The position numbers and the translations under genes were made by a program. From the NCBI RefSeq assembly GCF_003334385.1, contig NZ_QOWN01000161.1: a stretch of 598 nucleotides of DNA; one strand, given 5' to 3'. This stretch comes from Escherichia coli (GTDB taxonomy: Bacteria; Pseudomonadota; Gammaproteobacteria; Enterobacterales; Enterobacteriaceae). The notes beneath the pieces are model-generated. The model had not been told where the DNA came from. It saw only the letters and a list, made by a program, of their open reading frames with translations, and searched no databases. Shown one piece after another: positions 1-598 of the stretch (position 1 is its first letter; every line of letters begins with the position of its first letter).

Positions 1-132
1 ATGTCAGACAAACTCATAACGCCGGCAAAGGTCCTGTGTGTGATTGTCGGTATTTCATTTTCACTAATGCTGGTTGCTCTTTTTCTGTCCCTCGCCTGGG
101 TGATGTTGTCTTCGTCGGGGCTGCTGGGGTGA
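1..132 (+). CDS. Small hydrophobic single-helix membrane peptide (43 aa if the ATG at 1 is the true start); function unknown; may be the 3' end of a longer gene that starts upstream of the window
   Basis: Frame 1 is open from 1 to the TGA at 130..132. Translation: MSDKLITPAKVLCVIVGISFSLMLVALFLSLAWVMLSSSGLLG. A short polar N-terminus is followed by about 26 uninterrupted hydrophobic residues. T falls at codon position 2 in this frame, as expected for a membrane helix, whereas the overlapping frame-3 reading gives a non-membrane-like CDCRYFIFTNAGCSF. Its stop overlaps the next candidate start (GTGA at 129..132). Absent from the ORF track, presumably for length. Confidence 0.4.
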   Translation: MSDKLITPAKVLCVIVGISFSLMLVALFLSLAWVMLSSSGLLG

Positions 133-251
133 CAGTGACTGATGACATCAGCAGAGCGCTGGCTTTTGCTATTAAGTGGGTGGCTGTTGGTATTGCTGTG
201 TCTCCGATGCTGTATGGGCTGGCAAAACTGGTCATTGCGCTGAAATCGTGA
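129..251 (+). CDS. Small membrane peptide (about 40 aa), paralogue of the downstream 263..349 micro-ORF; function unknown
   Basis: Frame 3. Translation from GTG 129: (M)TVTDDISRALAFAIKWVAVGIAVSPMLYGLAKLVIALKS, ending at TGA 249..251. The start is uncertain: GTG 129 (overlapping the upstream stop as GTGA) or GTG 135. The ORF track extends this frame back to GTG 36, but that extension overlaps the better frame-1 membrane helix. The core RALAFAIKWVAVGIAV aligns with [16 protein letters not shown] in the next ORF, with mostly synonymous or conservative codon differences. Confidence 0.5.
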   Translation: MTVTDDISRALAFAIKWVAVGIAVSPMLYGLAKLVIALKS

Positions 252-262
252 ACTTTAAAAAG

Positions 263-349
263 ATGAGTGCTGAACTTATTCGGGCAATGGCATTTGCCAT
301 TCGTATTGTGGCCATTGCTGTTCTGGTCTGGGCAATTCGTTGGTGGTGA
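263..349 (+). CDS. Micro-ORF encoding a 28-aa hydrophobic peptide, paralogue of 129..251; function unknown
   Basis: Frame 2, ATG 263 to TGA 347..349. Translation: [28 protein letters not shown]. One predicted helix with Arg residues and a C-terminal aromatic RWW. Protein-level similarity to 129..251 with silent nucleotide divergence. Its stop is 1 nt before the Rz ATG (TGA-T-ATG). Weakness: the sequence just upstream of the ATG is A-rich (AAAAAG) with no clear GGAGG-type Shine-Dalgarno. Confidence 0.45.
341..345 (+). promoter_or_regulatory. Shine-Dalgarno-like ribosome-binding site for Rz
   Basis: GGTGG at 341..345, followed by a 5-nt spacer (TGATA) and the ATG at 351. It lies inside the 3' end of the upstream micro-ORF, consistent with translational coupling. 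Confidence 0.5.
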
Positions 350-350
350 T

Positions 351-598
351 ATGAACCGTGTTCTGTGTGTGGTGATTATTGTCATGCTGGTAGCCTGTGG
401 TGTGCTTAGTCTGGGGCTGAATCATTACCGTGATAACGCCATAACCTACAAAGAGCAGCGCGATAAAAAAGTCAGTGAGCTGGAGCAGGCAAATGCAACC
501 ATTACTGATATGCAGCAGCGCCAGCGTGATGTTGCTGCACTTGATGCCAGATACTCGAGGGAATTAGCCGATGCGAGAGCTGAAAATGAAACTCTGCG
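351..598 (+). CDS. Rz: Rz-type i-spanin (inner-membrane spanin subunit), lambda Rz family; 5' portion only, truncated by the window's 3' edge
   Basis: ATG at 351 opens a frame that stays open to the window end. Translation: [82 protein letters not shown]. This is an N-terminal hydrophobic signal-anchor followed by a charged, Q/A/R/D-rich helical region. From memory of lambda Rz (..[44 protein letters not shown]..), the [11 protein letters not shown] and [10 protein letters not shown] blocks are near-identical. A Shine-Dalgarno-like GGTGG sits at 341..345, 5 nt before the ATG. Confidence 0.9.
557..560 (+). promoter_or_regulatory. Putative ribosome-binding site for the embedded Rz1 start
   Basis: GAGG at 557..560, about 10 nt upstream of the +1-frame ATG at 571, inside the Rz coding sequence. 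Confidence 0.35.
571..598 (+). CDS. Rz1: Rz1-type o-spanin (outer-membrane lipoprotein spanin subunit); only the first 9 codons are in the window, embedded in the +1 frame of Rz
   Basis: ATG at 571 is in the +1 frame relative to Rz and lies 220 nt into Rz, which matches my recollection of where lambda Rz1 begins inside Rz. Translation is MRELKMKLC..., compared with recalled lambda Rz1 MLKLKMMLC.... A second in-frame ATG at 586 is an alternative start. GAGG at 557..560 is a plausible ribosome-binding site. The lipobox and mature protein are beyond the window. Confidence 0.6.

Follow-up and report, generated by a model that had tools for sequence, protein, structure and literature searches.

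The window considered here is a stretch of 598 nucleotides of Escherichia coli DNA that is 100% identical to positions 24331-24928 of Escherichia phage PhiR5_1 (PV340545.1) and also to a prophage of E. coli 2018-166. Sequence related to it is present in 2180 of 5426 complete E. coli genomes. The annotated context is that of a lambdoid late operon, in which holin S, (DUF1327), lysozyme R, a KilAC antirepressor and several tiny hypothetical ORFs are followed by Rz and the terminase. A literature search under the name of the phage returned unrelated papers only. Four micro-ORFs, ORF0 to ORF3, occupy the interval between the antirepressor stop and the Rz start (3903-4353 of locus L001, which corresponds to window 1-353 and about 100 nt upstream). 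ORF1 (1..132, + strand) encodes a small hydrophobic protein of 43 aa that matches phrog_4906, and is followed on the same strand by ORF2 (135..251), ORF3 (263..349) and the 5' part of the gene for the i-spanin Rz (351..598), which matches phrog_13 (Rz-like spanin) with an E value of 2e-76 and runs past the end of the window. A 61 aa ORF with a lipobox (LVVSAC) is embedded in Rz in another frame (L001 4571-4756), its start falling at 571..598 of the + strand. Absent from the PhiR5_1 annotation, this ORF is presumably Rz1, the o-spanin, judging from the lambda Rz1 sequence, and at the equivalent position of the related loci L209-L211 there is a Pfam call for Rz1. ORF1 was also considered as a duplicate of the N-terminal transmembrane segment of Rz, on account of the direct repeats D6 and D7, a candidate that was rejected at a BLASTP E value of 0.69.

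The reading frames of this interval are closely packed. The antirepressor stop overlaps the start of ORF0 (ATGA); the ORF0 TAA is separated from the ORF1 ATG by ag (TAAagATG) and the ORF1 TGA from the ORF2 GTG by ca (TGAcaGTG); the ORF2 stop is overlapped by a GTG at 248 (GTGA), in the same frame as the ORF3 ATG at 263 and thus an alternative start for ORF3; and a single t lies between the ORF3 TGA and the Rz ATG at 351 (TGAtATG). Overlaps or gaps of 1-2 nt between starts and stops along the micro-ORF chain suggest serial translational coupling, and ORF3 would be the last of the coupled micro-ORFs that lead from the antirepressor to Rz/Rz1 in the late (lysis) operon of a lambdoid phage or prophage. 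Prophages differ in how the small genes between the endolysin and Rz are arranged: in L209-L212 a 60-aa ORF2-type gene is followed by a 43-aa ORF1-type gene and Rz, whereas the order in the window is ORF1, truncated ORF2, ORF3 and Rz. In a first set of loci, 80 viral contigs collected by way of the adjacent Rz gene and without regard to the palindrome, the gene directly before Rz is ORF0-like (MAEKLSTWKF...IRWW) in about 28 and ORF1-like in about 10.

ORF3 encodes a small hydrophobic protein of 28 aa that matches phrog_4493 (E 3.8e-6) and phrog_3246 (E 9e-5). The gene is annotated in RefSeq (WP_032140280.1), the GenBank record of PhiR5_1 lacks it, and the exact peptide is found on about 1000 contigs in public databases, where its names are always hypothetical or membrane protein. 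ORF2 (VTDDISRALAFAIKWVAVGIAVSPMLYGLAKLVIALKS) is a paralogue of ORF3 with stronger profile matches, to phrog_1115 (E 3e-24) and phrog_4493 (E 1.5e-16); the two peptides align by BLASTP with an E value of 3e-5 over an RAxAFAI[KR] motif and the adjoining hydrophobic stretch. Full-length members of the family have 37-60 aa and start with MK(N)G[IL]E..., and in comparison with the full-length form of 48-60 aa ORF2 is truncated at its 5' end; its annotated start differs between the RefSeq and GenBank records (135 and 96, respectively). All three PHROGs matched by ORF2 and ORF3 (4493, 3246 and 1115) are annotated as of unknown function, and comparison of the ORF3 family with Pfam, NCBIfam and PADLOC gave no significant match, the nearest being one sub-threshold NCBIfam hit (E 0.16). 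A literature search on small membrane proteins of lysis cassettes brought up no description of the family. From its hydrophobic sequence and the tight stop/start coupling, the ORF3 peptide would be expected to reside in the membrane.

In the lysis cassettes of many enterobacterial prophages, members of the family lie between the endolysin gene and the gene for the spanin or for another lipoprotein. In other prophages they are located between the endolysin and Rz, and in cassettes of quite another make-up (holin_8, holin_3_7, M15 or GH108 endolysin; L204-L207) the family member precedes the gene of a lipobox protein instead of Rz. This downstream gene (1616-1828 in L204-L207) encodes a lipobox (LLVGC) protein of 60-70 aa that belongs to phrog_7528 and may be an outer-membrane lysis component. 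The family peptides end in R-W-W-stop, 1 nt ahead of the downstream start codon.

In the window the junction between ORF3 and Rz (341..353, + strand) reads TGGTGGTGAtATG. In it the closing codons of ORF3 and its stop are found together with a Shine-Dalgarno-like GGTGGTGAT, and Rz starts 1 nt beyond that stop. The ideal Shine-Dalgarno sequence, complementary to the 3' end of 16S rRNA, is GGAGGTGAT, from which GGTGGTGAT deviates by one base, and the end of ORF3 is on this account likely to carry the ribosome-binding site of Rz. Translation of ORF3 would then be coupled to the initiation of Rz. The junction TGGTGGTGAnATG (window 339-353; L204 1603-1618) is conserved before Rz in the 80 Rz-anchored loci whatever lies upstream, and the 3' end of ORF3, CGTTGGTGGTGAnATG, is kept upstream of Rz with any preceding micro-ORF and even with none, as well as ahead of the unrelated gene for the 60-aa lipobox protein. 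The final codons CGT TGG TGG TGA, which stand 1 nt before the Rz ATG, may also be under selection. Relatives with CGC in place of CGT have an exact Chi octamer (GCTGGTGG) at the junction, where the window has GTTGGTGG.

Within ORF3, at 286..301 (no strand assigned), the window reads AATGGCATTTGCCATT, a near-palindrome of 16 bp of the form AATGGCA-TT-TGCCATT. Its arms, AATGGCA at 286-292 and TGCCATT at 295-301, are perfectly complementary over 7 bp, and its centre, the TT at 293-294, is not symmetric. The sequence-only reading had described these arms, the 2-bp centre and the placement of the repeat inside the third micro-ORF, and all of this agrees with the window, since 286-301 falls within the ORF at 263-349. 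The same reading had offered two explanations for the palindrome, namely that it is bound by a dimeric protein or folds into a cruciform or RNA hairpin, or that it is a by-product of the codons in which it lies.

The palindrome is statistically unremarkable and represents no excess over chance. In 2000 dinucleotide-preserving shuffles of the window, perfect inverted repeats with 7-bp arms occurred on average 0.10 times per shuffled window for loops of up to 2 nt (P = 0.09) and 0.36 times for loops of up to 10 nt (P = 0.25). Across the 50-kb PhiR5_1 genome there are 19 palindromes with perfect 7-bp arms and a loop of up to 2 nt, and 35 with a loop of up to 4 nt. The 16-mer itself is present once in the PhiR5_1 genome (50,981 bp), and a scan of that genome revealed no further copy even at 3 mismatches. 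Scans of the phage genome that left the centre free or allowed variable spacing between half-sites returned this site alone or near matches at the level of chance. Further copies of the motif, for which the sequence-only reading had proposed a search of the genome, are thus not to be found in the phage genome.

The six codons concerned are GCA ATG GCA TTT GCC ATT, which encode Ala-Met-Ala-Phe-Ala-Ile, and the palindrome covers the last base of the first Ala codon together with the Met-Ala-Phe-Ala-Ile codons. Four of the seven dyad pairs are imposed by the peptide: the Met and Ile codons account for A287/T300 and T288/A299, and two Ala codons for G290/C297 and C291/G296. The remaining three are set by synonymous third positions. 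When the codon usage of the PhiR5_1 late genes is applied to the peptide A-M-A-F-A-I, the probabilities of obtaining 4, 5, 6 or 7 pairs are 0.37, 0.44, 0.17 and 0.022, respectively, so that a full dyad is unlikely at any given place yet unexceptional among many hydrophobic, Ala-rich positions. It should be kept in mind that 7/7 is an outcome of about 2% at this one site, which is unremarkable genome-wide but not trivial. The dyad is very probably a fortuitous product of these codons, which open the predicted hydrophobic helix of the ORF3 peptide; four of its pairs follow from the amino acids without further assumption, and the other three would be chance synonymous choices made within one lineage.

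The behaviour of the palindrome among homologues was followed in a second set of loci, 120 viral contigs that match a degenerate DNA pattern for AFAIRI[VI]AI. All third positions of this pattern are free and the left arm lies outside it, so that it does not select for the palindrome. Of the 120 loci, 69 are of the near-identical type A and keep 7/7 pairs, and in one further type A locus (L179) a synonymous GCC>GCT change reduces the dyad to 6/7. In the L118-type (A', 3 loci) an ATG>ACG change (Met>Thr) likewise leaves 6/7 pairs with no compensating change. Type B accounts for 44 loci, in which the C-terminal peptide, the right arm and the downstream DNA are identical and only 2/7 pairs are present, GGCAGCT standing where the left arm should be; the last 3 matches to the degenerate pattern are unrelated. 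A more diverged homologue, the P0053-type, has TGCGGCCTTTGCAATT at the position of the palindrome and again 2/7 pairs. In the window itself the counterpart in ORF2 (158..173, no strand assigned) is GCTGGCTTTTGCTATT, which codes for (A)LAFAI, retains 3/7 pairs and has a DNA fold of only -0.6 kcal/mol. The residue that precedes AFAI varies among family members (M, A, L, V or T), and the dyad can be completed by Met alone. No compensated arm changes were present among the homologues examined, every observed change in an arm breaking pairs.

The dyad is thus not conserved, and the peptide is. Both outcomes that the sequence-only reading had named as speaking against its palindrome were encountered, namely homologues that keep the peptide and lose the dyad (2/7 pairs in 44 loci, 3/7 in ORF2) and, as far as the phage genome is concerned, the lack of any other copy of the motif. 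The near-invariance of the palindrome within type A is evidence to the contrary, but it says little either way because the DNA of this lineage is almost identical throughout. The type A ORF has 4 variable positions in 87 nt, one of which (298) lies inside the palindrome; as the palindrome makes up 18% of the ORF, substitutions within type A are not depleted there, although some contigs were in duplicate and the copy counts in this tally are inflated. A role for the dyad that is specific to the type A phages is given a very slim chance at most.

Selection at the locus is evident at the level of the protein. By the Nei-Gojobori method, type B (L087 1573-1686) and the P0053-type (L204 1501-1614) differ by 18.5 synonymous and 4.5 non-synonymous changes, which amounts to a dN of 0.056, a dS of 1.7 and a dN/dS of about 0.03, and 34/38 residues agree in the coding frame as opposed to 18/37 in the other two frames. 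The corresponding dN/dS between A and A' is about 0.27. The low dN/dS of the former pair and its identity in the coding frame mean that the third micro-ORF is a real gene, and the family is under strong purifying selection and evolves as a protein. Selection would act on the peptide, that is on the family motif R-A-x-A-F-A-I and the putative TM segment that follows it, and the only role of the DNA at 286-301 would be to encode the first part of the hydrophobic helix in a small membrane peptide.

The alignment of types A, A' and B also places a mosaic boundary inside the palindrome. Types A and B cannot be aligned upstream of window 292 and are almost identical from 293 through Rz, so that the boundary (292/293) is situated between the left arm and the centre, at the point where the conserved A-F-A-I motif begins. 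The left arm is therefore part of a lineage-specific head (MSAELIRAM), the centre and the right arm are part of a shared tail, and the two arms differ in history. This boundary reads as an explanation of how the palindrome arose and not as evidence that the palindrome has a function. Its sharpness and its position could in principle also mean that the palindrome was left as a scar by the recombination which brought the type A head and the shared tail together, or that it is a site favoured for this exchange. This is held to be highly improbable, as the start of the A-F-A-I motif is where an exchange between diverged paralogues would end anyway, and as type A' (L118) is evenly diverged on both sides of the boundary, which implies a long-standing association of head and tail in that lineage. 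Cruciform-dependent or SbcCD-dependent events require palindromes well above 16 bp, a size that this one falls well short of, and even a scar would leave an element without function.

Perfect 7-bp arms around a 2-bp centre have a geometry that suits a dimeric helix-turn-helix protein, and the dyad could on these grounds be taken for an operator-like site, inside the late operon, of a phage or host DNA-binding protein. The dyad symmetry and the length expected of an operator are indeed present, but conservation of the half-sites beyond coding constraint, a regulatory location and recurrence are not. The site lies within a coding sequence under purifying selection, and 0 promoter-like sites were detected when the window was scanned for sigma-70-like promoters. 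The left half-site is missing in the 44 loci that retain an identical right half and identical downstream DNA, the phage genome contains no second copy or near-copy of the site, and it contains 19 palindromes of equal quality. The palindrome has no obvious resemblance to the sigma-54 -24/-12, CRP, LexA and Fur consensus sequences or to the common restriction sites. Binding of a dimeric protein at this site is therefore considered improbable in the extreme.

As RNA, the isolated 16-mer is predicted to form a stem of 6 bp with a 4-nt loop at -6.2 kcal/mol, and as DNA the palindrome reaches -4.0 kcal/mol (z -1.4). The z-scores of the RNA folds against shuffles range from -1.0 to -1.9 and are non-significant, and the minimum-energy fold of 109 nt uses a shifted 5-bp stem in which the palindrome's own 6-bp pairing is absent. 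A permissive terminator scan flags a related stem of 5 pairs at 283-298, whose tail, AUUCGUAUUG, is no U-tract. Matches to a terminator-like consensus occur at 148-162, 283-298 and 296-312, three against 0.6 expected, and are probably compositional, reflecting a T-rich hydrophobic coding sequence without real U-tracts. The idea that the repeat forms an mRNA hairpin with an effect on termination, stability or the coupled translation into Rz can draw on the predicted stem and on the flagged 5-pair relative, but it is barely credible given that the stem is non-significant and unused in the longer fold, lacks a U-tract, lies 50 nt upstream of the Rz start and leaves the Rz ribosome-binding site uncovered, has no match in Rfam at E <= 1, and is disrupted in homologues by uncompensated changes (Met>Thr and GCC>GCT to 6/7 pairs, type B to 2/7). 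By the usual measures it is neither an intrinsic terminator, which has a stable G+C-rich stem directly before a U-tract (here -6.2 kcal/mol and 3 G-C pairs), nor a structured RNA, which would match a described family or display covariation.

The site is thus subject to coding constraint, its dyad is not conserved and its motif is unique in the phage genome. It is very probable that the palindrome is a functionless by-product of codons within a real gene, that of a putative 28-aa small membrane protein of a lambdoid lysis cassette. Of the two explanations put forward from the letters alone, that of a codon by-product has held up, and that of a dimeric-protein site, cruciform or RNA hairpin has not, the dyad being unconserved and without a second copy in the phage genome. 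The palindrome need consequently no longer be counted among candidate regulatory sites; it illustrates that hydrophobic coding sequence rich in Ala, Met and Ile yields dyads of convincing appearance. [quoted passage not shown] It may tentatively be supposed, as a rather unlikely proposition, that the peptides of 28-60 aa are accessory lysis factors which modulate the spanin or holin or which act as a translational-coupling leader that sets the dosage of Rz/Rz1; alternatively, the micro-ORF peptides are neutral passengers. The sole item at this locus that might repay experimental work is the small-gene family located between endolysin and spanin.

Like intrinsic (Rho-independent) terminators, the palindrome can be drawn as a short stem-loop and a permissive scan reports a related stem, but this stem has 6 pairs, 3 of them G-C, is not followed by a U-run and is located mid-gene, in a translated ORF of an operon that needs read-through to Rz. 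The phage operators, such as lambda OR/OL and the Arc and Mnt operators of P22 immI (ant), share with it the dyad symmetry and are of comparable length to its 16 bp, and an antirepressor gene is found about 0.4 kb upstream. In contrast to these operators, the dyad in the window is intragenic and downstream of the antirepressor instead of in the antirepressor promoter; it is also single-copy, has half-sites that are not conserved and has no promoter nearby. ORF3 and ORF2 resemble the members of PHROGs 4493, 1115 and 3246 in matching their profiles, in the RAxAFAI[KR] motif with a hydrophobic stretch after it, and in their position between the endolysin and Rz, or before the gene of another envelope protein. 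ORF3 differs from the usual members (MKGIEVETPASLDLTRAA) in its N-terminal head, which is shorter and distinct (MSAELIRAM) and which supplies the left arm of the palindrome. The closest counterparts of the palindrome are fortuitous coding palindromes, in which the GC of the Ala codon GCN is self-complementary and the ATG of Met pairs with a CAT across an xxC-ATy codon junction. No feature distinguishes the palindrome from these, save that 7/7 pairs call for three synonymous coincidences (P of about 0.02 given the peptide). As in such palindromes, 4/7 pairs are dictated by the amino acids, the dyad of the window is lost upon any change of residue or synonymous change of base, and 19 per 50 kb is the density of ordinary sequence.
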